Source: Minisyncoccota bacterium
Lineage (GTDB): Bacteria > Patescibacteriota > Minisyncoccia > Phycocordibacterales > PALSA-1337
NCBI GenBank assembly: GCA_036516895.1
Contig: DATDZD010000016.1
Span: forward strand, 1-51,743
Length of the DNA stretch: 51,743 nucleotides
Reading direction: 5' to 3'
The translations under genes were made by a program, and so were the position numbers. Within the stretch, counting starts at the first letter, position 1, and the number at the start of each line of letters is the position of its first letter. Below, in pieces: positions 8,716 through 38,276 of this stretch. The notes below the pieces were generated by a model. That model was not told where the DNA came from. It worked only from the letters and a program-made list of their open reading frames with translations, and did no database searches.

Positions 8716-9588
8716 ATGGCAAAAACACCTACAGTTTTTAATAAGATCAATACGCTTAGGGAAAGATACTACAAAGCATCAATCGGAAAAGAAGCACTGA
8801 TTAAGCTTGTGAGCGAAGCAGAAATTGCGGACCATGTATATAACTCAAACGCAATTGAGAACAGCGCCTTGTCTCTTGAAGAAACTGAGAAGATTCTCCT
8901 CCAGATTGACTTAGATCGATATATTACCGAGAGAGAATTATTTGAGGCAAAGAATCTTGCTCGGGTTGTCACATACATTGATAAAAGATCAAAAGAACAG
9001 GAACTTGGTCATGATGTTATTTTATTGCTCCATAAAATGCTGATGTCGAATATTCGGGACGAGATTGCCGGAAGGTTCCGTATGGGTGATGAGCGTGTTC
9101 GTGTGAGTAGTCACATTGCTCCACCAGCTCAGGATATCAACTCAAGTATTCAGAAGATGTTTTCAGAATACAATGCCATAAGTCACGAAAATATTATAAA
9201 ATGTATTGCTCGATTACACCTCGCATTCGAGTATCTTCACCCGTTTAATGATGGAAACGGTCGTATTGGACGAGTAATCAACAACTATCTCCTTATACGA
9301 GAAGGTTTTGTGCCTATCAACATTAAATTCATTGATAGGAAGAAATACTACGATGCTTTTAAGGAATTTGATGAGAAAGGCGCGACTAGGATTATGGAAG
9401 AAATTGTCGCTAAGGCGCTTACTAACAGCTACCACAAAAGACTAGCTTACCTAGAGGGTAAAAAAATTGTTGTCCTTGTTGATTATGCCAAGAAGAATAA
9501 GATATCTCATTCTAACTTGATTAATAAAGCGAACCGTCAGACCATTGAAGCTTTTTTGGAAAGGGGGGTCTGGAAGATTGGAGAATAA
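8716..9588 (+). CDS. Fic-domain protein (class II, N-terminal inhibitory helix)
   Basis: Canonical Fic motif HPFNDGNGRIGR (9238-9273), and the inhibitory (S/T)xxxE(G/N) motif SNAIEN (8845-8862) upstream of the core. Confidence 0.9.
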   Translation: MAKTPTVFNKINTLRERYYKASIGKEALIKLVSEAEIADHVYNSNAIENSALSLEETEKILLQIDLDRYITERELFEAKNLARVVTYIDKRSKEQELGHDVILLLHKMLMSNIRDEIAGRFRMGDERVRVSSHIAPPAQDINSSIQKMFSEYNAISHENIIKCIARLHLAFEYLHPFNDGNGRIGRVINNYLLIREGFVPINIKFIDRKKYYDAFKEFDEKGATRIMEEIVAKALTNSYHKRLAYLEGKKIVVLVDYAKKNKISHSNLINKANRQTIEAFLERGVWKIGE

Positions 9589-11691: not shown

Positions 11692-12900
11692 ATGTTACAT
11701 TCAATATCTTGTAAAAATTTTTACTCTTTTGGCGATATAACCGCCTTGAGTTTTGTAGTGAATGACAATGCTCCACAAAACAATGGGTATTTTACTGCAC
11801 CTTCAGGAGTACGCCTCTCAAAAGTCGAGACAGTTATCGGTCCAAACGCTTCCGGAAAAACAAATCTCTTAAAGACTATTCCATTTTTAAAATGGCTTAT
11901 CGTTGATTCTTTTAATTTGAATCCACAATCTCCAATAATCCTTCGCCCCTTCATGTTTGGTGGATATAAAAACAAACCAAGTGAACTCTCTGTTGTATTT
12001 GAGATTGCTACAGGTGTGTATACTTACAGTTTTGTCCTTGATCAAACAAAGATAATTTCAGAAGAATTGAAATTGACTAGCATGGCAAAAGAAAAAAAGT
12101 CTAGTAAAAAGATTTTTTCACGAGTATGGAATGAGACAACCAAACACTATGACCTTGAGGGTGATAATTTTAATCTTCCTAAAGGATTTGAAAATCTATT
12201 ACGAACAAATGCGAGCGTTATAGGTGTTGCCATGCGCCTGAACCATAAGGAAAGTCAGGAAATAGCTAATTTTTGGCAGAGTATAGAAACAAATGTCAGC
12301 GAAGGTGGTTGGATTGGAGATCATATGTTTATTAACCGAGGTGTTCAATTGGCTGAAGTACTCAATTTCTTTAGCGGAAAAGAATCTCTTAAAAAAGAAG
12401 CTGAAAAACTTCTTGCACGTTTTGATCTTGGTTTAAATGCATTTGAAATCAAGAAAGAAAAACAAGAAAATGGAGTATCAATGAGTGTTCAGGTATCTCA
12501 CTCATTTGGTGATCAAAAAGAAATGTTACCAATTCAATATGAATCTTCAGGTACAAAGCAACTGTTTATTCTTCTTAAACATATCTTACAAGCACTCAGT
12601 ACTGGTGGTGTCGTTATCCTAGATGAGTTTGATGTTAACCTTCATCCAGAAATGATGCTGGCTCTGTTTGACTTATTTATTGATCCGAATACAAATGAAA
12701 AGAAAGCTCAGCTTCTATTCAGCACACACAACCATTATATTTTAAGCAAACTTGATAAATATCAGATAACGCTTATTGAGAAAAACGATAAAGGCATGAG
12801 TGAATCTTGGCGCCTTGATGAAATGACCGGTGTACGAGCAGATGACAATTACTACACAAAGTACATCGCCGGTGCTTATGGGGCAATTCCTAAAATATAA
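11692..12900 (+). CDS. AAA_21/ABC-type ATPase (AbiLi / RloA-like, OLD-family ATPase module)
   Basis: Walker A GPNASGKT, signature-like SSGTKQ, Walker B VVILDEFD and an H-loop FSTHNH, with a long insertion between the Walker motifs as in SMC/ABC-like defence ATPases. Confidence 0.85.
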   Translation: MLHSISCKNFYSFGDITALSFVVNDNAPQNNGYFTAPSGVRLSKVETVIGPNASGKTNLLKTIPFLKWLIVDSFNLNPQSPIILRPFMFGGYKNKPSELSVVFEIATGVYTYSFVLDQTKIISEELKLTSMAKEKKSSKKIFSRVWNETTKHYDLEGDNFNLPKGFENLLRTNASVIGVAMRLNHKESQEIANFWQSIETNVSEGGWIGDHMFINRGVQLAEVLNFFSGKESLKKEAEKLLARFDLGLNAFEIKKEKQENGVSMSVQVSHSFGDQKEMLPIQYESSGTKQLFILLKHILQALSTGGVVILDEFDVNLHPEMMLALFDLFIDPNTNEKKAQLLFSTHNHYILSKLDKYQITLIEKNDKGMSESWRLDEMTGVRADDNYYTKYIAGAYGAIPKI

Positions 12901-12905
12901 ATACC

Positions 12906-13337
12906 ATGTCTAGGACCAACCCATTCAAAAAGAAAAGACGAGCAGCGAGTAGAACCTTACTAGTTTTTGGTGAGGGCATGTGCGAAGAAATGTTCCTGAA
13001 ACATATTAAAAGTTTGTACTCATATATCGCAAATATCGCAGTTACTGTTCGAAAAGGAAAAGGTGGTACGGCATTTGATGTGGTAATTGACTCAGATAAA
13101 ATACCTGGCGATTTTGATAAAAAAGTTGTCGTCTTAGATAATGACAAGAGTACAGAGGAAATGCAACAAGCACGAAAAGAGGCTAATAACCGAGGAATTA
13201 TTTTAATTGAAAACACTCCTTGTATCGAAGCTCTTTTGCTCTCAATTCTGGAATCAGGTACCGAATTTTCTTCAAAAACATCTGCATGGTGTAAGAAAGA
13301 ATTTGAATTAATGGCCCTCCCCCCAAAATTTGCATGA
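12906..13337 (+). CDS. RloB-like Toprim-domain protein (AbiLii-like); the last codons and stop lie in the IS left end
   Basis: Basic N-terminus followed by LLVFGEGMCEEMF (Toprim Glu), VVVLDNDK (DxD) and ENTPCIEALLL (resembling SNPCFElWlL). It starts 5 nt after the ATPase stop. Confidence 0.7.
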   Translation: MSRTNPFKKKRRAASRTLLVFGEGMCEEMFLKHIKSLYSYIANIAVTVRKGKGGTAFDVVIDSDKIPGDFDKKVVVLDNDKSTEEMQQARKEANNRGIILIENTPCIEALLLSILESGTEFSSKTSAWCKKEFELMALPPKFA

Positions 13338-13375: not shown

Positions 13376-13630
13376 ATGAAATACAATAGAGTATCTTTAG
13401 ATGTTAAGGAACAAATAATCAGTAGAATTAAAAATGATGGAGTAACTATAAAGCAAGCTAGTGTAGAACACGGAGTGCCAGAATCTACAATAGCTACTTG
13501 GATTGCTAAAAGAGTAGAAGGACAACCTAGTCTGGGAGATATTATAAAGATCAAGAAAGAAAATGATCAATTGAAGATTCTCTTGGGAGAAATTACTCTT
13601 AAGCTATCTGAGACCCAAAAAAAGAAGTGA
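13376..13630 (+). CDS. IS3-family transposase OrfA (HTH)
   Basis: 84 aa with an HTH region (IKQASVEHGVPESTIATWI) and a leucine-zipper-like C-terminus. It ends just after the slippery site. Confidence 0.85.
   Translation: MKYNRVSLDVKEQIISRIKNDGVTIKQASVEHGVPESTIATWIAKRVEGQPSLGDIIKIKKENDQLKILLGEITLKLSETQKKK
13618..13624 (+). promoter_or_regulatory. programmed -1 ribosomal frameshift site (A AAA AAG)
   Basis: The orfA zero-frame codons are AAA (13619-21) and AAG (13622-24). The -1 frame is continuous with orfB (frame of 13627). Confidence 0.7.
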
Positions 13631-14415
13631 GGTGTAGAAGTGATACCTCCAAAACTCTCAGGGCCAAGGAGTTGGGAGTTTCTCTCAGAAGTCTCTACTA
13701 CAGACCCAGACAACCAGACAAAGATTGGCAACTTAAATGTCAAATTGAGGAAGTGCTACGAGAATATCCCTCATATGGTTCTCCACGCATAGCACTTCAT
13801 CTCAAACGTAACCATAAGCCGATTGAACGAGTTATGAAACTCTTCGGTATCAAAGCATATCGTAGAAGAGGTAGGAAATGGAAAAAGACCAAGAATATCA
13901 AGGTAATATATCCAAACCTACTCATTACAACATACCCACAGTATGAGAATCATATTTGGGTATCCGACTTTACCTACATACCATTCCAAGGAAAAACCAT
14001 CTATGTTGCAACAGTAGAGGATCTATTCACTAGAAAGATTGTCGGAGTGTCAGCATATACAACTCATGCGGTTCAACTAATTCTCTCTGCGTTTATGAGT
14101 GCTCTACATAATAATCCTAGACCTATCATTTTCCATTCAGACAATGGTAGTGAATACAATTCAGAGGTATTCATAGGTACTCTACAAACAGTTGGAACAC
14201 AAATCTCCAGATCAGCTCCTGGATGTCCATGGGAAAATGGATATCAAGAATCCTTCTACTCACAATTCAAGGTAGATCTGGGTGATCCTAGTAGATTTAA
14301 GAATATTGGAGAACTAGTATATGAGATATATCACTTGATTTATATCTACAACCACAAAAGAATACATACTTCTTTAAAAATGTCACCGGTACAGTTTGCA
14401 TTAAAAAGTCGCTAG
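13627..14415 (+). CDS. IS3-family transposase OrfB (DDE/rve integrase core), probably expressed as an OrfAB fusion
   Basis: DDE triad contexts WVSDFTYI, FHSDNGSEY and PWENGYQESF. It overlaps orfA in the -1 frame. Confidence 0.9.
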   Translation: MRCRSDTSKTLRAKELGVSLRSLYYRPRQPDKDWQLKCQIEEVLREYPSYGSPRIALHLKRNHKPIERVMKLFGIKAYRRRGRKWKKTKNIKVIYPNLLITTYPQYENHIWVSDFTYIPFQGKTIYVATVEDLFTRKIVGVSAYTTHAVQLILSAFMSALHNNPRPIIFHSDNGSEYNSEVFIGTLQTVGTQISRSAPGCPWENGYQESFYSQFKVDLGDPSRFKNIGELVYEIYHLIYIYNHKRIHTSLKMSPVQFALKSR

Positions 14416-14723
14416 GAATACAATTAACTCAATACAAGTTTAGTGTGCAATGAAATGGGGGAAGTACAGAGGGTTAGATGATAGGAATCATTTGGTCGTC
14501 GGACATCCATATCCGAGACCCGGGCTTTTAAATAAACGACAAAATGGCGGAAAATAAATCAGAGCATCTTTAAGTACGGGCTAGTTTACTAGCTTATACT
14601 TTAAAAAAATTGTGAACCGCAACGCATTTTACCAAAAACTTATTCACTAATCAGTGAAACTGTTGTTTGATAAGCGTAGCAAAGACCTAACAAAGGTTAA
14701 TCCAATTAAAGATGTCCCATTTC

Positions 14724-14760
14724 CCCGAAGGTGCTACGGCATACTTCGGGTTTTTCTTTT
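14724..14760 (+). terminator. rho-independent terminator
   Basis: CCCGAAG (14724-14730) pairs with CTTCGGG (14744-14750), followed by TTTTTCTTTT. Confidence 0.6.
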
Positions 14761-15471: not shown

Positions 15472-15573
15472 AATCGGCTCGCCTACTTGCGCTCGGAAGC
15501 TCTTTTATTTGTTCTCCGCCTGCTGGCGGATAAAAATAAAAGACTTCTTCACCGCAGGCTCGCACGATTTTAC
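15467..15573. repeat. about 106-nt imperfect palindromic element filling the frr-rseP spacer
   Basis: The outer stem is GTAAAATCG (15468-76) with CGATTTTAC (15565-73). The middle stem is GAAGCTCTTTTATTT (15497-15511) with AAATAAAAGACTTC (15535-48). The GC core hairpin is TCCGCC-TGCT-GGCGGA (15515-30). Confidence 0.6.
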
Positions 15574-18692: not shown

Positions 18693-19628
18693 CTAAAATA
18701 ATTTCTCTATTTTTTTGGTAGAAGTAATAACTCTTTCAGCAAGTTTAATATAATCTGGATTTATTTCAAATCCTATGTAGTTCTGTCCAAGCTCTTTTGC
18801 TATCGCACATTCAGAACCACTTCCAACGAAAGGCACGAGTACCACTCCGTCATTTTTAGGCATTGCAGACTTGATTAATTTTCTACAAAGTTCTAATGGT
18901 TTTTGAGTCGGATGTTTTACTATTTCATGATTGATATGATTCTTTAATTCTCTTGGCTCGTAAATGCCATTGCAATTTTTGCAAATAAACCATCTCTCAT
19001 TCATGCCAGCTCCTCCCGCTAAAGCCGGTATTTTTATCACATCACGTGGCAATGCGCCACTTTCATGTGCATTATATATTGTCTTTTTACCATTACTACT
19101 ATATCTACCGATAGTCCCTTTTCTTATTTTACCTGCAGCGCCATTTAAAAATCCTTGTGTGTAGGGTTCTCTGATCTCATCTTTATTGAAAATAGGTCTT
19201 TCTTTCCATGCACATATGATAGATTCATGACTTCTTTGCCAGAAATTTAAAGAAGTTACATTCTTATTAGTATAATGCCAAATTAACCATCTTTTATTGA
19301 TTGAAATTTCTACCGAGAGAAAAGCTAATATCTCACTAAACCCGTAGATAAATAATGTTCCAGTCGGTTTTAGAATTCTCACCGATTCATCTATCCAACT
19401 TTTTGACCAATTTATGTATTCATTTAGCTCTCTCTTATCAATATTATTTCCGAAATCTTTTCCGATATTATATGGTGGATCGATAATTATCACATCGCAA
19501 GATTCATCTGGCAGCTTTTTAAGTCCATGTACACAATCGCCAAGAATAACCTTATTAATAGGTAAAATATTGACCTCTAGCTTTTTTTTCTTTTCTATTT
19601 GTTTAGTAAACATCTCCATGACATACAT
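18693..19628 (-). CDS. DNA methyltransferase (N6_N4_Mtase, beta class, probably m6A)
   Basis: Motif IV IIDPPYN precedes motif I VLVPFVGSGSE (beta-class order). HPTQKP is present, and a CxxC...HxxxH insertion (FICKNCNG...HINHE) is present. Confidence 0.9.
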   Translation of the reverse strand: MYVMEMFTKQIEKKKKLEVNILPINKVILGDCVHGLKKLPDESCDVIIIDPPYNIGKDFGNNIDKRELNEYINWSKSWIDESVRILKPTGTLFIYGFSEILAFLSVEISINKRWLIWHYTNKNVTSLNFWQRSHESIICAWKERPIFNKDEIREPYTQGFLNGAAGKIRKGTIGRYSSNGKKTIYNAHESGALPRDVIKIPALAGGAGMNERWFICKNCNGIYEPRELKNHINHEIVKHPTQKPLELCRKLIKSAMPKNDGVVLVPFVGSGSECAIAKELGQNYIGFEINPDYIKLAERVITSTKKIEKLF

Positions 19629-24332: not shown

Positions 24333-24448
24333 GGAAAATTGGACAAAATTCTTTCTCTGGACACAAGCTCTTTTTTCTTCGGCAAGCTCAGAAAAAAGAC
24401 TTCTGTCCATCAACGAATTTTGTCTCAATTTTCCGAGCCGATTTTACC
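24333..24448. repeat. about 102-nt palindromic element plus a shared 15-mer in the rplJ-rplL spacer
   Basis: GGAAAATTGGACAAAATTC (24333-51) pairs with GAATTTTGTCTCAATTTTCC (24415-34). TGGACA pairs with TGTCCA. An inner perfect 10-bp stem is TCTTTTTTCT / AGAAAAAAGA. Next comes CGAGCCGATTTTACC (24434-48), the reverse complement of 15467-81. Confidence 0.6.
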
Positions 24449-26443: not shown

Positions 26444-26499
26444 ATGACTATTGATTCTAACTTTCAAATCTTTATTTTTTATTGTATTATGATTTTAAT

Positions 26500-29139
26500 A
26501 TGAAACCTTATGACCACCTAAAGATAGAGAAGAAATGGCAGAAATATTGGGAATCAAAGAAGCTTTTTCAGGCAAAAGGAGATACTAAAAAAGATTTTTT
26601 TCGTAAAAAATTCTACTCTCTCATAGAATTTCCTTATCCTTCTGGAGACGGTCTTCATGTTGGACATATACGAAGCAATACAGCAATGGATATTATTTCT
26701 CATAAACGCAGGAGAGAAGGATACAATGTACTTTATCCCATTGGTTGGGATGCTTTCGGTCTTCCTACAGAAAACTACGCTATCAAGACTGGTATTCAGC
26801 CAGCAGTGGTCACGAAGAAGAATAGCGATATATTTAGACGCCAGCTCAAAGCTCTCGGCTTTTCTTTTGATTGGTCTAGAGAAATAAATACTACCGACCC
26901 AAAATATTACAAATGGACACAATGGATTTTTCTTAAATTTTTTGAAAAAGGTTTGGCGTATAAAAAGAAAATGTCTATCAACTGGTGTCCGAAGGACCTT
27001 ATTGGTCTTGCCAATGAAGAAGTGGTGGATGGTTGTTGCGAGCGATGTGGGACTCCTGTGGAAAAACGGGAGAAAGAACAATGGATGTTGGCTATCACAA
27101 AATATGCAAACCGCCTAGATAAAGACTTGGATGATGTTGATTATTTGGAAAAGATAAAGATACAACAGAGGAATTGGATAGGGAAGAGCGAGGGGGCGGA
27201 GATAGAATTTGAAATTATCTTTAAAAATGGTGGCCACTCCGGCAAAATAACAGTATATACCACTAGACCAGATACAATATTCGGCACAACATACCTAGTG
27301 TTTTCTCCTGAACACCCTTGGGTTACTCTTGCTATCAATACAAATCACAAAAAAGTTTTTGATAATATAGAAGAAGTCAAAAGATATATTATAGAAGCTA
27401 AAAACAAAAAAGAATATGAAAGAATTTCAGTTGAAAAAGAAAAAACTGGAATTGAGCTAAAAGGTGTTATGGCCATAAATCCCGCCACAAAAGAAGAAAT
27501 TCCAGTTTGGATTGCGGACTATGTTCTAGCGGATTATGGCACTGGAGCTGTGATGGCGGTGCCGGCTCATGATGAGAGGGATTATGATTTTGCGAAGAAA
27601 TATGGGTTAGTAATCAAACAAGTCATAACTCCTTATAATACTGAAGTCGCAGGTTGTTTTATAGGTAAGGGCAAAATAATAAATTCAAATCAATTTAACG
27701 ATAAAGATTCAGAATCAATAAAAAAAGAAATTACGGTTTTTGTTGGTGGAAAATGGGTCACAAAATACAAACTCCGCGATTGGATATTTTCTCGCCAAAG
27801 ATATTGGGGGGAACCGATACCTGTGGTGCATTGTGAGAAATGTGGAACCGTGCCCGTTCCAGAAAAAGATTTGCCGTTGAAACTTCCAAAAGTTAAAAAT
27901 TATAAACCGACAGAGACAGGAGAATCTCCTCTTGCAAGCATATCAAAATGGGTCAATACAAAATGCCCAAAATGCAAAGGAAAAGCAAAAAGAGAGACTG
28001 ACACTATGCCAAACTGGGCGGGGTCAAGTTGGTATTATTTGCGTTATATTGACCCAAAAAATAAGAAAGCATTTGCTTCTATGGAAAAATTGGAATATTG
28101 GCTTGGCAAAGACAATACTGGAGGTGTGGACTGGTATAACGGAGGTATGGAGCATACTACTTTACACCTCCTCTATTCTCGTTTTTGGCATAAATTTCTT
28201 TTTGACTTGGGATTAGTACCAACAAATGAACCATACAAGAAGCGCACTTCGCATGGTCTCATATTGGCGGGGAAAAATGAGAAGATGTCAAAATCAAAAG
28301 GCAATGTGGTAAACCCTGACGATATTATAAAGCATGTAGGAGCAGATGCTTTGCGTCTATATGAAATGTTTATGGGACCTTTTGAACAACATATTTCTTG
28401 GGATGAAAATGGCGTGGTTGGTACGAAGAGATTTATTGAAAAGGTTTGGAAATTGCAGGAGAAGGTTGTGGACAGCTATGGTCAAGTTGATATCACAAGC
28501 GAAATTGCCATAGCTAATGGACAGGTTTCCGCGTCCTCTCAGCGACAGCAGGTCTCCCTTCGTGGCTTCGCCAGTCGGGAGATTGCTCTCGCTTGCGGAC
28601 GCGACTTAACCATAGACAGAGGACGCGGATACGAAACTCTAGATATGGTAAATACTGACACACTCATCCACAAAACCATAAAAAAGGTTTCAGAAGATAT
28701 TGAAAATATGAAGTTCAATACCGCTATCAGCTCTATGATGATATTGGTTAATGAGCTTGAAAGACAGCCAACAATTACAATAGAGCATTACTCAATTCTA
28801 TTACAACTTCTCGCGCCTTTTGCTCCGCATGTCACAGAAGAATTGTGGGTAAATTTTGGCGAAAATACAAACAGCAACAAGTCAATTCACCTTTCTCCGT
28901 GGCCTCTATTTGACCAAAGAAAAATTATGGAAGCTTCTACAACTATTATGGTCCAAATTAATGGAAAAGTCAGAGGAAGTTTTATTGCAGATATTAATGC
29001 GAGCGAAGAAATATTAAAAAATACAGCTTTGAATATACGCGAAATAAGAAAATGGATAGATGATAAAGAAATATTGAAGACTATTATTATAAAAGGGAAA
29101 TTGGTTAGTATAGTGACGCGAGATTATGGAACATCATAG
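26500..29139 (+). CDS. leuS: leucyl-tRNA synthetase (carries an in-frame palindromic element at 28521-28605)
   Basis: HIGH (GLHVGHIRS), KMSKS (EKMSKSKGN), a CP1 editing domain and FNTAISSMM. The ATG at 26500 (MKPYDHLKIEKKWQKYW) is preferred over the TTG at 26482. Confidence 0.95.
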   Translation: MKPYDHLKIEKKWQKYWESKKLFQAKGDTKKDFFRKKFYSLIEFPYPSGDGLHVGHIRSNTAMDIISHKRRREGYNVLYPIGWDAFGLPTENYAIKTGIQPAVVTKKNSDIFRRQLKALGFSFDWSREINTTDPKYYKWTQWIFLKFFEKGLAYKKKMSINWCPKDLIGLANEEVVDGCCERCGTPVEKREKEQWMLAITKYANRLDKDLDDVDYLEKIKIQQRNWIGKSEGAEIEFEIIFKNGGHSGKITVYTTRPDTIFGTTYLVFSPEHPWVTLAINTNHKKVFDNIEEVKRYIIEAKNKKEYERISVEKEKTGIELKGVMAINPATKEEIPVWIADYVLADYGTGAVMAVPAHDERDYDFAKKYGLVIKQVITPYNTEVAGCFIGKGKIINSNQFNDKDSESIKKEITVFVGGKWVTKYKLRDWIFSRQRYWGEPIPVVHCEKCGTVPVPEKDLPLKLPKVKNYKPTETGESPLASISKWVNTKCPKCKGKAKRETDTMPNWAGSSWYYLRYIDPKNKKAFASMEKLEYWLGKDNTGGVDWYNGGMEHTTLHLLYSRFWHKFLFDLGLVPTNEPYKKRTSHGLILAGKNEKMSKSKGNVVNPDDIIKHVGADALRLYEMFMGPFEQHISWDENGVVGTKRFIEKVWKLQEKVVDSYGQVDITSEIAIANGQVSASSQRQQVSLRGFASREIALACGRDLTIDRGRGYETLDMVNTDTLIHKTIKKVSEDIENMKFNTAISSMMILVNELERQPTITIEHYSILLQLLAPFAPHVTEELWVNFGENTNSNKSIHLSPWPLFDQRKIMEASTTIMVQINGKVRGSFIADINASEEILKNTALNIREIRKWIDDKEILKTIIIKGKLVSIVTRDYGTS
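28521..28605. repeat. 85-nt GC-rich hairpin element, copy A (in frame within leuS)
   Basis: About 90% identical to 32728-32811. Its arms are CGCGTCC...AGCGACAGCAGGTCTCCC and GGGAGATTGCTCTCGCTTGCGGACGCG. It is translated as QVSASSQRQQVSLRGFASREIALACGRD. Confidence 0.75.
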
Positions 29140-31685: not shown

Positions 31686-32723
31686 ATGGCTTATACCCCA
31701 ACTCCCACATCGCCTTTTCCCAGAGATTCTTTATCTGGCAGAAATGTCTCACCTATCTATACTTTTCCGTGGAAATCTTTCTTATGGAGATTTTTCTCTG
31801 TCGCATTGGCGATTCTCATCATTCTATTTTTTTATAATACTCGTCCACCAAAAGCTTTTCCGTCTGGCTTTATTTTCCATATAGAGAAAAATACATCTCT
31901 CTCCGATATAGCCGACATGTTAGTGAAGAAAAGAATCATTCGTTCACAGTTTATTTTCAAAGCAAGCACGGTTTTTTTCAATCTTAATTTGAAAGACGGT
32001 GTTTTTGCTGGCGAGTATCTTTTTCAAGAACCGACAAATGTATGGACTACGGCCTACAGAATGGTAAAAGGCGACCAAGGTCTTCCCAGAATAAAAATAT
32101 CTATTCCAGAGGGAAGTACGGTAGATGATATAGCTTTTATTCTTCAGAAAGAAATTCCAAACTTTAATGCTCCATATTTTGTAAAAGTCGCAAAAAGTGC
32201 TGAGGGTTATCTTTTTCCGGATACATATTTCTTTTATCAAAATACTACCGCTCTTGAAATCGTGGATTCTATGCGTAGGACATTTGATGAGAAATTACAA
32301 GGGCTTATTTTCAATATAGGGCTTTCTAGAAGAAAAATAGAAGATATTGTAACAATGGCATCCATAATAGAGAAGGAGGCCTCAAGCACAAAAGATAGGA
32401 TGCTTATTGCCGATGTTTTATGGAAACGCCTTGATGAAGGGATGTTGCTTCAGACAGACCCAACTGTTCTTTATATCACTTCAAATCTTAATAACGGTCA
32501 TGTTTCTATAGCCGATACAAAAATAGATTCTCCATACAATACTTATAAATACAAAGGTTTGCCAAAAGGACCCATTTCAAATCCTAGTTTGGATGCTTTG
32601 AAGGCGAGTATAAATTCTACAAAGAATCCATATTTTTATTACTTGGCGGATAAAAAGGGGAATATGCATTATGCTGTGGATTATGAAGGGCATTTGGAGA
32701 ATAAAGATAAATATTTGAGGTAA
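31686..32723 (+). CDS. mltG: endolytic murein transglycosylase MltG (YceG-like)
   Basis: N-terminal TM segment and YceG signatures (EGYLFPDTYFF, ASIIEKEA, LQTDPTVLY, YNTYKYKGLPKGPISNP). Confidence 0.9.
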   Translation: MAYTPTPTSPFPRDSLSGRNVSPIYTFPWKSFLWRFFSVALAILIILFFYNTRPPKAFPSGFIFHIEKNTSLSDIADMLVKKRIIRSQFIFKASTVFFNLNLKDGVFAGEYLFQEPTNVWTTAYRMVKGDQGLPRIKISIPEGSTVDDIAFILQKEIPNFNAPYFVKVAKSAEGYLFPDTYFFYQNTTALEIVDSMRRTFDEKLQGLIFNIGLSRRKIEDIVTMASIIEKEASSTKDRMLIADVLWKRLDEGMLLQTDPTVLYITSNLNNGHVSIADTKIDSPYNTYKYKGLPKGPISNPSLDALKASINSTKNPYFYYLADKKGNMHYAVDYEGHLENKDKYLR

Positions 32724-32727
32724 AAGA

Positions 32728-32811
32728 ACAGTATCCGCAACCTCTCGGCGACAGCAGGTCTCCCTTCGTGGCTTCACCAGTCGGGAGACTGCTCTCGCCT
32801 GCGGTTGCGAC
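32728..32811. repeat. 84-nt GC-rich hairpin element, copy B (intergenic, 5 nt after the mltG stop)
   Basis: A paralogue of 28521-28605. Its differences include paired, stem-preserving substitutions (CGCGTCC/GGACGCG versus CGCAACC/GGTTGCG). Confidence 0.75.
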
Positions 32812-32968
32812 AAGTTTGGAAAGTTGCAAAAAATTATTTTTTTATGAATATTTTAACTATTTCTCTTGCTTTAAATACATTTTGTAGTAATATGATTATT
32901 AGACAGCACCTTTTGTAAGGTGCTTTGACTTTTTGAAAACCACAAACAAAAATCAACGACATAAACCT

Positions 32969-35900
32969 ATGATATATAGAATGTATCGTCAGATTAACAG
33001 TGGCTTGGAATATGGTTTCTATATTGAAACCACAAGCCAGCTGTCAGGGCAATCACTCAAAAAATTAAAATGGCTTATTGCGGAAACATTTGAAGTGGAA
33101 AAAACTAGACCAGGACCTCAATACCAAGGTAGATTTGTGGTTGAGATAGGACCACGATTGTCAATTGAAACCCCATTTTCATCCAATGCTGTGGCAATAG
33201 CGCATAACATGGATATTCCTGAAGTCATTCGCATCGAGCGGACTCATCTGCACATTACAGGTGACTCTGGAAAAGGAAGGGCATGGGCACTACAAAAAAT
33301 TGATATAATGACCGAACAACATTACCCAAATGGGATTGGGGGCTTTGACACCGGCACTGCGCCGGAACCAGTCAAAGTTGTTGACCTTCTCGGTTTTGGA
33401 CAACTTCTTCTCAGGGAAATAAACTCTGAGCTTGGTTTGGGCATGGATGACAATGATATTGAATATTACTACAATCTTTTTGTACACACTCTCAAAAGAA
33501 ATCCGACTGATGTTGAATTGTTCCAGCTAGGCAATGCGAACAGTGAGCACAGCCGGCACTGGTACTTCAAAGGCAAGATGGTCATCGATGGACAGACAAT
33601 AGAAAAGACTTTGATGCAAATCGTCCAATTTCCATTGGTCAATCTCAATAGGCAGAACAGACAGCATACGAGTCTGGTCGCCTTCAAAGACAACGCCGGA
33701 GTAATCAAAGGATTCAGCACACGCCTTATCCTGCCAGTCACTCCGGGCAAACCTTCGGAAATGCGAGTCCTCGATAAGGTGGTCCATATCACTTGTACCG
33801 CAGAGACGCACAACCATCCGACATTCGTCGCGCCCTTCCCCGGTGCCCAAACAGGCGCAGGTGGACGGATACGCGACAACACAGCAGTCGGGCGTGGAGG
33901 CATCGTTGGTATCGGTGTCGCCGGTTACTTTGTCGGAAACCTTTTCATTCCCGGATATCAAATTCCGGGCGAGGTTGTCGGCAGAGACAAGCCATCGAAA
34001 TACGCTTCGCCTCTCTCAATTCTCATTGAAGGCAGCAATGGCGTATCAAGCTATGGCAATCAGTTCGGCGAACCCCTCACACTGGGCTTTACCCGAACTT
34101 TCGGTAAGCTTATCGGAAGCGAATGGCGTGAACCTCGCAAGCCGATACTCTACAGTGGTGGCGTTGGTCATTTATTTGATGGACACATCACCAAAGAGAC
34201 ACCTGAAGTTGGAATGCTCATCGTGCGCATCGGCGGTCATGCCTATCCCATCGGGGTCGGCGGAGGCTCAGCTTCAAGTATGATGCAGGGAGAGAATTCC
34301 GAGTCGCTCGATTGGAACTCCGTTCAGCGCGGAAACGCAGAGATGGAGAATCGTGCGAACCGGGTCATTCGAGCCTGTGTCGAAATGGGAGATAAAAATC
34401 CCATCTCGAGCATTCACGACCAAGGTGCTGGAGGACCATCGAATGTTCTTACTGAACTCCTCGAACCTCTCGGTGGCAAGATTGACATTCGTGGCATCGT
34501 GCTTGGCGACAAGACGATGTCTGTTCTCAAAATCTGGAGCGCCGAATTCCAAGAAGGATATGGACTCCTGATCAGGGTAGAACAGGTCGGGCTTTTCAAG
34601 TCGGTTTGCAAACGCGAGCGCGTCAACTGCGAAGTTCTAGGAGAGATTGACGGCAGTGGAAACATTGTCGTTCTTGATTCTCAAAACGGGACAACGCTCG
34701 TCGAACTGAACCTGGGGCATATTCTTACGAACATGCCCCAGAAGACATTCGAGTCAAACCGGCGGACCGAAAGCTTCAAGCTTTTGGTCTTGCCGAATAT
34801 CACTATCGGCGAAGCAATCCGGACGGTATTTAAACTTCCTAGTGTGGGCTCAAAGGGATTTCTTGTCAACAAGGTAGACCGAAGCGTCACTGGGCTCGTA
34901 GCACAACAGCAATGTTGTGGTATCGCTCAGATTCCGATTGCAAATGTCAGTGTCAATGCGCAGAGCCATTTCGGTCTGACTGGATCCGCTTGCGCTATCG
35001 GAGAAAATCCGATTCGGATGCTCATTGATTCGGAAGCTGGCGCTCGAATGGTTGTGGGAGAATTCCTCACCAATATGGCGTCAGTGGTAATCAGCAACAT
35101 CGGAGACATCCGGTGCCGTGCAAACTGGATGTGGCCTGCAAAACTGCCTCACGAAGGTGCCCTTCTCTATGACGCCACTCAAGCCATGTCAAATTTGATG
35201 ATAGACTTGGGCATCGCAGTTGATGGAGGAAAGGACAGCCTTTCAATGGCTGCGATGGTACAAGGAAATCTAGTAAAAGCTCCTGGAAGTTTGGTGATAT
35301 TTGGATACGCATCCGTGCCTGACATTACGAAAAAGGTTACACCGGATATAAAAAAACCCGGCAAGAGTGTTTTGGCACTCATTGATCTTGGACAAGGTAA
35401 AAATCGCCTTGGCGGTTCTGCTCTGGCTCAAGCGTTCAATCGACTCGGTGACGAAACACCTGATGTTGATGATCCGAAACTCCTCAAGAATGCATTTGAG
35501 GTAATGCAGATTATAATCAACGAAGAACTGATTCTGTCTCTGCATGATCGAAGCGATGGTGGCCTCATAACTGCAGTTGCTGAGATGTGCATGGCGAGCC
35601 GGTGCGGATTCACTCTAAAGGTCACGAGTTGGAATGTGGTGGACCACATGGATGTTATGGATGAGTTATTCGCCGAAGAGCTCGGTTTCATCATGGAACT
35701 TGACCCTCAAAATGAAAAACTAGTTCGAGTTATCTGTGATAGATTTGGCATTCCATTCACATGGATTGGAACAACTGAATCAACTGAAAGGTGTGTCATT
35801 CGTGATGATTACAAAGAAATATTTAGTGTAACTACCAGAGAACTTCGTCTTTGGTGGGAATCAACAAGCTATCATATTGAGAAACTGCAGGTTACCCCCG

Positions 35901-36856
35901 AATGCGCTAAGGTGGAATATTTTGGACATAACTATCGTTTGCTTAATAATATCGATACAGCTCCATCGTATAAGCTCTCATTCATTCCAGCAACAACGCT
36001 CCCGGAAGTTTTGGAAGCACGAGACAAACCTCGCGTTGCAATATTGCGCGAGGAAGGTACGAATGGTGACAGAGAAATGCAAGCTGCATGTCTGGCAGGA
36101 GGTCTTGCTCCATGGGATGTCACAATGAGTGATCTCCTTGAAGGCAGGATCGATCTGGATTATTTTCAGGGTATCATCTTTGCCGGTGGATTCTCCTATA
36201 TGGATGTGTTTGATAGTGCGAAAGGATGGGCAGGAACAATTCTTTTCAATGAAAAGTTGAGAGAGATGTTCGACAAATTCTATTACGCTCGCCGAGATAC
36301 GTTTTCACTCGGTGTGTGTAATGGTTGTCAGCTCGTGGCTCTTCTTGGACTTGTTCCGTTCGTTAGTGATGCGGAGAATCAGGTTTATGGCAGACCAACA
36401 GATCAGTATCAACCAAGGTTTATTCACAACACTTCGGGCAGGTTTGAGTCTCGATGGGTACAGGTGGAGGTTCTCCCAAGCCCATCGGTGCTTCTTGCCG
36501 GGATGGAAGGTTCAAAACTTGGTGTGTGGGTCGCTCATGGTGAAGGGCGCTTAGTGTGCTCTCACAAAAAAGTGGCTGGGAGAATAAAAGAACACAACCT
36601 TGCTCCTTTCGCATTCATTGATCCATCAGGGTGTCGAACAGAGGTGTATCCGTACAACCCAAATGGTTCGCCAGACGGGATTACGGCACTCTGCTCTCCG
36701 GATGGTAGGCATCTTGCAATGATGCCTCATCCAGAACGTTGTTTCCGTTTGTGGCAATGGCCTTGGATGCCAGAGTCTTGGAGAAAGCTCGAGGCTTCAC
36801 CATGGCTTAGAATTTTTCAGAATGCCAGAACATGGTGTTGGGAAAACAGGGCTTAG
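32969..36856 (+). CDS. purL: phosphoribosylformylglycinamidine (FGAM) synthase, single-chain large PurL
   Basis: About 1295 aa comprising an N-terminal domain, duplicated AIR-synthase-like FGAM synthetase domains and a C-terminal class I glutaminase (GVCNGCQL Cys, MMPHPER His). The ATG at 32969 is preferred over the TTG at 32933. G+C is about 52% (line 34081-34140). Confidence 0.93.
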   Translation: MIYRMYRQINSGLEYGFYIETTSQLSGQSLKKLKWLIAETFEVEKTRPGPQYQGRFVVEIGPRLSIETPFSSNAVAIAHNMDIPEVIRIERTHLHITGDSGKGRAWALQKIDIMTEQHYPNGIGGFDTGTAPEPVKVVDLLGFGQLLLREINSELGLGMDDNDIEYYYNLFVHTLKRNPTDVELFQLGNANSEHSRHWYFKGKMVIDGQTIEKTLMQIVQFPLVNLNRQNRQHTSLVAFKDNAGVIKGFSTRLILPVTPGKPSEMRVLDKVVHITCTAETHNHPTFVAPFPGAQTGAGGRIRDNTAVGRGGIVGIGVAGYFVGNLFIPGYQIPGEVVGRDKPSKYASPLSILIEGSNGVSSYGNQFGEPLTLGFTRTFGKLIGSEWREPRKPILYSGGVGHLFDGHITKETPEVGMLIVRIGGHAYPIGVGGGSASSMMQGENSESLDWNSVQRGNAEMENRANRVIRACVEMGDKNPISSIHDQGAGGPSNVLTELLEPLGGKIDIRGIVLGDKTMSVLKIWSAEFQEGYGLLIRVEQVGLFKSVCKRERVNCEVLGEIDGSGNIVVLDSQNGTTLVELNLGHILTNMPQKTFESNRRTESFKLLVLPNITIGEAIRTVFKLPSVGSKGFLVNKVDRSVTGLVAQQQCCGIAQIPIANVSVNAQSHFGLTGSACAIGENPIRMLIDSEAGARMVVGEFLTNMASVVISNIGDIRCRANWMWPAKLPHEGALLYDATQAMSNLMIDLGIAVDGGKDSLSMAAMVQGNLVKAPGSLVIFGYASVPDITKKVTPDIKKPGKSVLALIDLGQGKNRLGGSALAQAFNRLGDETPDVDDPKLLKNAFEVMQIIINEELILSLHDRSDGGLITAVAEMCMASRCGFTLKVTSWNVVDHMDVMDELFAEELGFIMELDPQNEKLVRVICDRFGIPFTWIGTTESTERCVIRDDYKEIFSVTTRELRLWWESTSYHIEKLQVTPECAKVEYFGHNYRLLNNIDTAPSYKLSFIPATTLPEVLEARDKPRVAILREEGTNGDREMQAACLAGGLAPWDVTMSDLLEGRIDLDYFQGIIFAGGFSYMDVFDSAKGWAGTILFNEKLREMFDKFYYARRDTFSLGVCNGCQLVALLGLVPFVSDAENQVYGRPTDQYQPRFIHNTSGRFESRWVQVEVLPSPSVLLAGMEGSKLGVWVAHGEGRLVCSHKKVAGRIKEHNLAPFAFIDPSGCRTEVYPYNPNGSPDGITALCSPDGRHLAMMPHPERCFRLWQWPWMPESWRKLEASPWLRIFQNARTWCWENRA

Positions 36857-37013: not shown

Positions 37014-38276
37014 ATGAATATGGCTAGAATTTGGAATAGATATAAACAGACGAATACCTCTCTTGGCAAGAAGGTCTTTATTGGCATGTCCGGAGGAGTG
37101 GATAGCTCTGTTTCCGCTGTATTACTAAAAAAACAAGGATATGATGTGACCGGGGTTTTCATCAAAGTCTGGCAACCTGAATGGCTTGCAAATACTTCTG
37201 TTTGCACTTGGAGAGAAGACCGACTTGACGCCATGAGAGTGGCGGCAAAGATTGATATTCCTTTTATTACTCTTGATTTAGAAAGGGAATATAAGAAAGA
37301 AGTGGTAGACCATATGATAAGCGAATACAGGGTTGGAAGGACACCTAATCCTGATGTGATGTGCAACGCTTATGTGAAATTTGGCGGATTTTTTGATTGG
37401 GCTATGAAACAAGGCGCGGATTTTGTGGCGACGGGGCATTATGCACAGATTGTTAATATTAAAAGCAATGGGGCAGAATTGACTTCTGAAGGAACTCTCG
37501 GAGCCGCGAAGGCGGCGAGAGGGAGCGCGCCGTCAGCAGACGGCGACGCGTGTCCTGAAGAAGTCAATTCTGCCCCATTGCTTGCTATGGGTATTGACTC
37601 AAATAAAGACCAATCATATTTTCTCTGGACATTAAAAAGAGAACAATTGCTACACATTTTATTTCCCGTTGGAAATATTTCAAAACCAGAAGTGAGAAAA
37701 TTGGCAAAAAAATTTGGTTTACCAAATGCGGAAAAAAAAGATAGTCAAGGTCTTTGTTTTATAGGTAAAATAGATGTTAAAGAATTTCTATCTCATTATA
37801 TGCCTGCGAAGAAAGGCAATGTTCTAGATGTAAAAGGGAATATAATCGGCGAACATGACGGTTCTTTCTTTTTTACCATAGGAGAAAGACATGGCTTTAC
37901 TATTACGAAAAAGACTCCGAATGACGAGCCATATTATATTATCTCAAAGGATATAAGAGAAAATACCATAACTGTTTCAAATAAATCCAAGCAAGGTCAT
38001 TTACCAGATGGTCAAAGAGAGGTGAAATTGAAAGATGTTAATTGGATAAGCGGAAAGCCACCAAAAGTTGGGAGAATATTGCAAGCGAGATCAAGATATC
38101 GTGAGCCATTGCAAAAAATAAAAATCATAGATGAAGTGATAAAAACAGTCGTTACTGTTCACAATCATGAATTAACCATACAATTTGAAAGACCGCAATA
38201 TACTCTTTCATCTGGGCAATCTCTAGTCATATATGATGGAGATATTTGTTGGGGGGGAGGGGTAATTGTGATATAA
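37014..38276 (+). CDS. mnmA: tRNA-specific 2-thiouridylase MnmA (carries an in-frame palindromic element at 37463-37583)
   Basis: PP-loop [10 protein letters not shown], the ATGHYA motif, [10 protein letters not shown] and a catalytic Cys context (DSQGLCFIG). Confidence 0.95.
   Translation: [420 protein letters not shown]
37463..37583. repeat. 121-nt GC-cored palindromic element in frame within mnmA
   Basis: A 25-nt perfect inverted repeat (37463-37487 versus 37559-37583) is extended by 4 more base pairs. The core has two hairpins (37495-37521 and 37525-37549). Line 37501-37560 is 73% G+C. Confidence 0.8.

Follow-up and report, generated by a model that had tools for sequence, protein, structure and literature searches.

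GC-rich imperfect palindromes in leuS, the mltG-purL spacer and other loci of Patescibacteria: a candidate family of insertion elements with a conserved folded shape

The window, meaning the whole 51,743-nt stretch of DNA that was analysed, carries mltG/YceG (31686-32723, with the stop codon at 32721-32723) followed by a purL-like ORF (32933-36856). In the spacer between these genes lies a 78-nt GC-rich bulged hairpin, designated copy B (Table 1). A second copy of the same hairpin, copy A, is found at a distance of 4206 nt inside leuS (ORF 26482-29139, 885 codons), where the reading frame is kept free of stop codons and the element, as read in leuS, encodes SASSQRQQVSLRGFASREIALACGRD. Both copies were recovered at the sites given in a preliminary description of this DNA. 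The same description had copy B starting 5 nt past the mltG stop codon, which is correct for a start at 32728, whereas the conserved hairpin begins 10 nt past the stop. Copies A and B have a GC content of 63-65% in a window of ~37% GC, and for the 24-mer core common to both, 0 chance matches are expected in the window. A putative and weak 5' extension of copy B, which overlaps the mltG stop codon, matches the sequence upstream of copy A at 10/16 positions in an ungapped register, a count made by eye and uncorrected for multiple looks. Copy B was found unchanged in 7 contigs from other samples, and no change in the element was seen among strain variants of LeuRS and MltG. The neighboring purL-like ORF, encoding an FGAM synthase, has a GC content of 45-51% against ~37% for the rest of the window, which is compatible with horizontal acquisition.

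Within the shared TCCG...CGAC core, copies A and B differ at exactly 8 positions, and 6 of these differences form three compensated pairs (G:C>A:T, T:A>A:T, and A:T>G:C). In the outer stem, the 5' arm carries G>A and T>A and the 3' arm the compensating A>T and C>T, giving the two preserved pairs that had been described for the change from CGCGTCC/GGACGCG in A to CGCAACC/GGTTGCG in B. The third compensated pair, A>G matched by T>C, is the change from A:T to G:C that had also been reported. A single T>C converts a G.T into a G:C pair, and a single G>A opens the apical C:G pair in B. With 8 substitutions placed at random, at least three compensated pairs would arise in the A-B comparison with P ~2.5e-5. 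The original count of 8 substitutions falling mostly as stem-preserving pairs is confirmed. Moreover, the hairpin copies fold far better than their own shuffles (z of -4.9 to -6.5 as RNA and -3.7 to -5.0 as DNA), and A and B beat their shuffles on either strand.

The collection of more copies had been proposed as a check, and three were found in public data when the six reading frames of the element were searched against proteins. All three, named C, D, and E, are in frame. Copy C lies in a LeuRS whose host protein is the closest relative of the window LeuRS (69% protein identity), copy D in the tail of a ParB, and copy E in a methyltransferase; the DNA of copy E was recovered by a metagenome scan. 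As contigs of the window organism occur in the samples that yielded the methyltransferase contigs, copy E probably belongs to the same genome as the window. Over the 78 nt, identity among the five distinct copies is at least 87%; they lie in four unrelated contexts and have a GC content of 63-70%, against 37% for the genome. By sample and assembly they appear to derive from at least three organisms, namely the window population, the source of the Hainich LeuRS contig, and a separate NCBI MAG. The closest relatives of the host proteins belong to Patescibacteria/Paceibacterota.

All five copies share one minimum-free-energy fold, as DNA and as RNA. The hairpin consists of 29 pairs in five stem segments with a 3-nt loop, and RNAalifold predicts the same 29 pairs independently. 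The stem segments are separated by bulges and internal loops listed as invariant (T14, TC/T.C, C/C, G29, TT/TC, and G39). In the five-copy alignment, pairing holds in 99.3% of the pair cells, double changes occur at four pairs, and the observed covariation values were matched by 0/500 shuffles. When the register of the partners is slid, pairing falls to 32-49%. Most of the variation falls in three adjacent pairs of the outer stem, which differ in every copy and are always paired (Table 1); beyond this 3-bp patch it is confined to the loop tip, one bulge, and pair 18/70, and the remaining positions are invariant. Two G.T wobble pairs were counted against one C.A, too few to choose between RNA and DNA, and G.T intermediates are still present in copies A and E. 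The preliminary description took the covariation as a sign of selection on the folded hairpin and not on a protein. This view has gained support, as the double changes hold with three more copies and the conserved nucleotides match between the non-coding copy B and genic copies of differing frame and orientation.

Table 1. Hairpin copies and associated features, with positions in the window or, for copies outside it, the locus
Feature	Position or locus	Strand	Outer stem, 5' arm / 3' arm	Description
Copy A	28528-28605	+	CGCGTCC / GGACGCG	TCCG-CGT-CC ... GG-ACG-CGAC; paired bases 28530-28603; in frame within leuS
Copy B	32734-32811	+	CGCAACC / GGTTGCG	TCCG-CAA-CC ... GG-TTG-CGAC; paired bases 32736-32809; mltG-purL spacer
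Copy C	L016 (sequence same as L018)		CGAAGCC / GGCTTCG	LeuRS fragment, Hainich groundwater; leuS site identical to that of copy A
Copy D	L017	reverse orientation	CGCCTCC / GGAGGCG	In frame in the C-terminal tail of ParB, NCBI MAG
Copy E	L019, again in L035 and L036	reverse orientation	CGCGCCC / GGGTGCG	In frame in a class I SAM methyltransferase
Putative 5' extension of copy B (weak)	32718-32733	+		Partly similar to sequence upstream of copy A
Left tail, long form	28474-28489	+		AGCTATGGTCAAGTTG; reverse complement of the right tail; common to copies C and E
Asymmetric inner segment, long form	28490-28527	+		Decayed inverted 3'-arm copy (28490-28505), conserved block TGCCATAGC (28506-28514), spacer
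Right tail, long form	28602-28617	+		CGACTTAACCATAGAC; overlaps the final 4 nt of the hairpin; minus-strand match
Extra segment	28618-28632	+		AGAGGACGCGGATAC; perfect complement of the 5' arm GTTTCCGCGTCCTCT, an alternative pairing partner
Terminator-like stem-loop with T-tail	32905-32924	+		From terminator scan; 94 nt downstream of copy B
rplJ-rplL spacer hairpin	24333-24437 (full); 24339-24423 (possible AT-drifted relative part)	+		Begins at the first base past the rplJ stop; z = -9.4
frr-rseP spacer hairpin	15472-15570	+		Begins at the first base past the stop; z = -6.4

Comparison with homologous proteins was used to examine the genic sites. In 15 LeuRS relatives the linker between ...KVWKLxEK and HKTIKKV has 10-22 residues, compared with 66 in the window and 52 in the host of copy C; the E. 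coli LeuRS linker at the element site has 26 aa. The methyltransferase carries 49 residues where its solved homologue (PDB 2igt) has 3. As homologues of both LeuRS and the methyltransferase are found without the insert, the element is an insertion. The insertion sites are a tolerant linker in LeuRS, a loop in the methyltransferase, the tail of ParB, and an intergenic spacer, and either orientation occurs. Of the four independent insertions, three lie in ORFs, and two of these three run antisense to the gene that hosts them; all genic copies are in frame and without stops, and the host proteins are unrelated to each other. No consistent direct repeat or target-site duplication was seen in the flanks of the five copies, whose boundaries are fuzzy. 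Only in copy D does the flanking target match the stem triplet (GGAGG repeated after CGAC), and this was treated as chance. No presence/absence polymorphism was found among strains, and mobility is inferred from the distribution of the copies. By GC skew, A and B are oriented forward and E in reverse, and this mixed orientation gives no support for a strictly strand-specific mechanism on single-stranded DNA.

Palindromes unrelated to the element were also encountered in genes. In the window, mnmA (37014-38276) holds an in-frame Y-shaped palindrome of 121 nt and 75% GC (37463-37583), in which 31-nt arms, 94% complementary, surround two small hairpins (DNA fold z = -12.3) and which adds ~34 residues in comparison with solved MnmA structures. 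In a LeuRS of another member of the Patescibacteria (P0008; L037, 505-685), an imperfect palindrome of ~180 nt lies in frame in the linker that carries copy A (z = -4.5). The LeuRS linker seems to be a recurrent landing site.

Since copies A and C occupy the same leuS site, their divergence can be set against that of the surrounding gene. Between the two leuS genes, codon positions 1+2 are 85-96% identical and third positions only 58-64%. The hairpin is 87% identical, or 94% without the variable 3-bp patch, and the non-hairpin parts of the composite described below have diverged or been deleted. Of 10 differences in the hairpin, 8 make up four compensated pairs, one converts G.T to G:C, and one lies in the loop; no pair is broken. 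The hairpin is so constrained well beyond pairing, the alternative being that it was refreshed by conversion or re-insertion. Conservation in place of this kind is unlike a decaying selfish insert and requires continued selection, gene conversion, or re-insertion. The left inverted repeat remnant in copy C retains the triplet of copy A (CGT), which suggests rewriting of the C hairpin since the two lineages diverged. Gene conversion of the whole hairpin within a genome is unlikely, as A, B, and E hold different triplets.

Copies A, C, and E belong to a longer composite of ~140-160 nt, and B and D are bare hairpins. The composite adds inverted tails of ~16 nt each (GGCTATGGTCAAGTYG / CGACTTRACCATAGMC) and an asymmetric inner segment in which the conserved block TGCCATAG is present; the inverted 3'-arm copy in this segment was recognized by eye, from comparison with the reverse-complemented 3' arm. 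Copies A and E also have an extra segment with complementarity to the 5' arm, decayed in the latter. Elsewhere in the window the tail motif is absent. When the long form was folded, competing structures and no single convincing three-way junction were obtained.

A wide range of searches was made for further members. With a covariance model based on all five copies, only the 2 known copies were detected in the 52-kb window, even with filters off, none in ~15 kb of extra sequence from the same population flanking the window, and copy E with nothing more on the methyltransferase contig. No additional copies appeared when the sequence was extended outwards from the ends of the window and followed along the methyltransferase contig. 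An exact 19-mer scan of GTDB species genomes returned 5 hits, all rejected as chance matches in GC-rich genomes with no similarity beyond the seed. Three scans of IMG/VR gave chance hits or none, blastn against phages and plasmids gave no match, and a scan of a metagenome collection gave copies C and E only. A six-frame peptide profile search returned P0003 only. An exhaustive HMMER search with the reverse-frame peptide retrieved repeat-peptide proteins (P0128-P0140, with FQSTLPAGEAT / ISIHASRGGSD / FNPRFPRGKR) that are not element copies; their repeats are separated by ~12-residue spacers, and they resemble translated CRISPR arrays miscalled as genes, unrelated to the element. With only 5 distinct copies from very large databases, the family has few copies and is rare in the data now available.

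Two further spacer hairpins in the window, between rplJ and rplL and between frr and rseP, have AAGCTCTTTT...AAAAGACTTCT in common; each largely occupies its spacer and is AT-richer than the element. The rplJ hairpin gave a weak match in register to the covariance model (15.8 bits, E 0.064), with 32/73 identical positions against 16.3 +/- 4.1 in shuffles and 24/26 pairs kept. For the frr hairpin the match was partial and non-significant (9.4 bits, E 3.6), with short shared motifs in a MAFFT alignment. By these sequence comparisons, the two hairpins may be AT-drifted relatives of the GC-rich element, homology being established for neither. The preliminary description had drawn a parallel between copy B, the frr and rplJ spacer elements, and the IS, all at gene 3' ends. 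The frr and rplJ hairpins do start right past stop codons; the IS, an IS3-type rve element, is unrelated in sequence to the hairpin.

Several other features of the genome were recorded. The IS3-type IS (13377-14415) lies upstream of frr and consists of a small orfA and, after it, an orfB for an rve integrase; it is followed by ~340 nt of non-coding, moderately structured sequence (14416-14760) with no Rfam match. Defence-like genes are found near the IS at 11692-13337 and 18693-19628, comprising an AAA_21/AbiEii-type ATPase with a RloB-like partner and a separate N6/N4 DNA methyltransferase, and a Fic protein is encoded at 8716-9588. On the methyltransferase contig (L035, 3117-4530, and L036), genes for a bAvd accessory protein and a reverse transcriptase (RVT_1) are adjacent on opposite strands, a pair that looks like a diversity-generating retroelement.

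Among known systems, Rickettsia palindromic elements (RPE) are short palindromes that insert in frame in unrelated housekeeping genes and between genes, adding a peptide in tolerant parts of the protein (PMC10969869). The present element is likened to these by description: it is a palindrome found in several unrelated genes and spacers (leuS, mltG-purL, the SAM methyltransferase gene, parB), its genic copies are in frame, stop-free, and missing from homologues, its host has a small genome, and no linked transposase is known. Unlike RPE, it resides in Patescibacteria, has a much lower copy number, is strongly GC-rich in an AT-rich genome, and is near-invariant in sequence between hosts save for the compensated 3-bp patch. 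REP sequences are 20-40 bp long, with an 8-9 bp stem and an unpaired GTAG or CGTC tag, and are often located just downstream of genes, with some inside (PMC3733652). The hairpins of REP/BIME-RAYT and the subterminal hairpins of IS200/IS605 are likewise imperfect GC-rich palindromes whose shape is recognized as folded single-stranded DNA, and the variation of stems that remain paired is also REP-like. Assignment to REP in the strict sense was rejected, as the element has 78 nt, 29 pairs, TCCG/CGAC ends, and no GTAG/CGTC tag. Its low copy number is a further difference.

Bacterial MITEs occur as dispersed intragenic and intergenic copies and can make in-frame fusions (PMC10969869). Like the MITEs (Correia, ERIC, RUP, Nezha, and others), which are non-autonomous and have inverted ends, the element has inverted tails of ~16 nt in its long form, and the hairpin itself is an inverted repeat; unlike them, its minimal shared unit is a tail-less hairpin. 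No parent IS with matching ends was found in the window, where the IS3-type rve element is the sole IS. Outside bacteria, GC-rich hairpin repeats known as RHE have invaded the AT-rich compact genomes of sponge mitochondria, including coding regions (PMC2800124). GC-rich hairpin-forming repeats in compact genomes are also reported for yeast mitochondrial mobile DNA (PMC4478555). The analogy with mitochondrial GC clusters, double-hairpin elements, and RHE is one of composition and behavior only, these being organellar with no sequence relation, and the host of the present element a free-living or episymbiotic bacterium. Integron attC sites are imperfect palindromes of 57-141 nt that are recognized in folded form and have conserved extrahelical bases and variable complementary triplets inside the outer boxes. 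They resemble the element in structural logic only, and the apical part, conserved in the element, is variable in attC. Identity with attC was rejected: the RYYYAAC/GTTRRRY boxes are absent from the element, no integrase domain was found among the scanned ORFs of the window, and the copies do not flank cassettes.

On balance we consider it likely that the 78-nt sequence belongs to a family of GC-rich insertion elements of the RPE, REP, or MITE kind, imperfectly palindromic and low in copy number, which is hosted by a Paceibacteria-type (Patescibacteria/CPR) lineage from aquifers, and that its folded shape is selected, probably at the DNA level. The unit is the bulged 29-bp hairpin bounded by TCCG...CGAC; it is inserted in spacers and, within housekeeping proteins, in tolerant loops, and genic copies survive only where the reading frame is kept. 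The property maintained is the folded shape, in which pairs change by matched double substitution or via G.U only; the three adjacent outer-stem pairs and the loop tip are free to vary, and the bulges, internal loops, and most stem bases are invariant. Such a pattern fits a recognizing factor for which sequence and shape both count, with parallels in REP sequences and their RAYT transposases, IS200/IS605 ends, and integron attC sites. The candidate factor would most likely be an enzyme that mobilizes or maintains the element by acting on a single-stranded DNA hairpin or a cruciform. As genic copies occur in both orientations and are equally conserved, recognition at the DNA level seems favored. 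Moreover, because the copies do not share one orientation with respect to host transcription, any cis function within the mRNA, as terminator or stabilizer, would be at most a by-product for copy B. Among ORFs of at least 100 aa in the 52-kb window, no transposase or recombinase linked to the element was found, and no Y1 transposase, RAYT, TnpA, integrase, or other candidate was seen. In full-text literature searches, no account of elements like these was found for Patescibacteria/CPR. Elements of this kind are known as such, and the family, its host group, and the very clean constraint pattern appear to be new.

An unlikely alternative is that the hairpin serves the host, being more than a selfish insert, and is kept by purifying selection at each locus, either as a site at which a lineage-specific protein binds or which it processes, or as a post-stop RNA hairpin that protects or processes 3' ends. 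The contrast between A and C is in its favor, as the hairpin outside the patch has kept its 94% identity beside neighboring neutral sites at 58-64% and the remaining composite has decayed, and the stem triplet private to each copy argues against gene conversion having homogenized the entire hairpin. The spacer hairpins of rplJ and frr, like copy B, start 0-10 nt past a stop codon. However, two of the three intragenic insertions (among four independent ones) are antisense, and an RNA acting in cis would show complementary loops and bulges. Most related LeuRS genes are without the element, which is therefore dispensable for the enzyme. The features of a terminator are absent as well: copy B was rejected as an intrinsic terminator because it has no U-tract, its hairpin is followed by ACAAGTTTGG, and the terminator scan does not call it. 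The separate T-tailed stem-loop further downstream (Table 1) is more likely to be the mltG terminator. The idea, raised in the preliminary description, that the hairpin acts as terminator or stabilizer of mltG does not agree with these observations, nor with three of four insertions being intragenic and two antisense. A tRNA identity was ruled out by search, and Rfam 15 gave no hit at gathering thresholds and one chance-level hit at E up to 10.

A broader version, which we regard as rather improbable, holds that the hairpin is not a decaying selfish insert but a module that purifying selection preserves at every locus, leuS among them. It would then belong to an undescribed shape-reading system of Patescibacteria, in which the 3-bp patch would be unread or serve as an address, or reflect a dependence of the host protein like that on an intron or intein; the frr and rplJ hairpins would be older members.

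Quasipalindrome-templated mutation is an established mechanism, and the compensated changes might be a mechanical by-product of intra-strand template switching (quasipalindrome correction) or of gene conversion between copies, and not of selection. The clustering of the double changes in one 3-bp patch is like that of patch-wise events and unlike that of independent point substitutions, and the CGT remnant in copy C points to block-wise rewriting or replacement of the C hairpin. Against this, correction should perfect palindromes, yet seven bulges and internal loops are invariant in 5/5 copies and G.T intermediates are retained in A and E; as the bulges were never corrected, templated correction is unlikely as the sole cause. 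Conversion, in turn, is not homogenizing A, B, and E, which probably share one genome and differ in the triplet. As a full account, a mechanical origin is thus decidedly improbable.

It is very hard to believe that the element is kept for its encoded peptide as a protein module common to LeuRS, ParB, and the methyltransferase: the genic copies are stop-free and in frame, and those of ParB and the methyltransferase use one reverse frame (...AGESSLPTGEATKGDLLSPRG...), but LeuRS uses the other strand and another frame (+1) with no common peptide, the non-coding copy B is conserved equally, so that no shared peptide can lie behind the conservation, substitutions follow base pairs rather than codons, and the opening of the element consensus in all six frames is unremarkable and not significant, being equaled in 15% of structure-preserving shuffles.

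If the reading of the hairpin as a palindromic insertion element holds, the phenomenon known from RPE, in which palindromes lie in frame in essential genes, extends to the ultra-small, genome-reduced Patescibacteria. The elements lengthen proteins and carry a risk of being misannotated as lineage-specific domains or as terminators. The clean pattern, in which bulges and most stems are invariant and a 3-bp patch covaries, offers a concrete structural target for finding the recognizing factor. Palindromic inserts of this kind may commonly give rise to the protein "insertions" noted in Patescibacteria.
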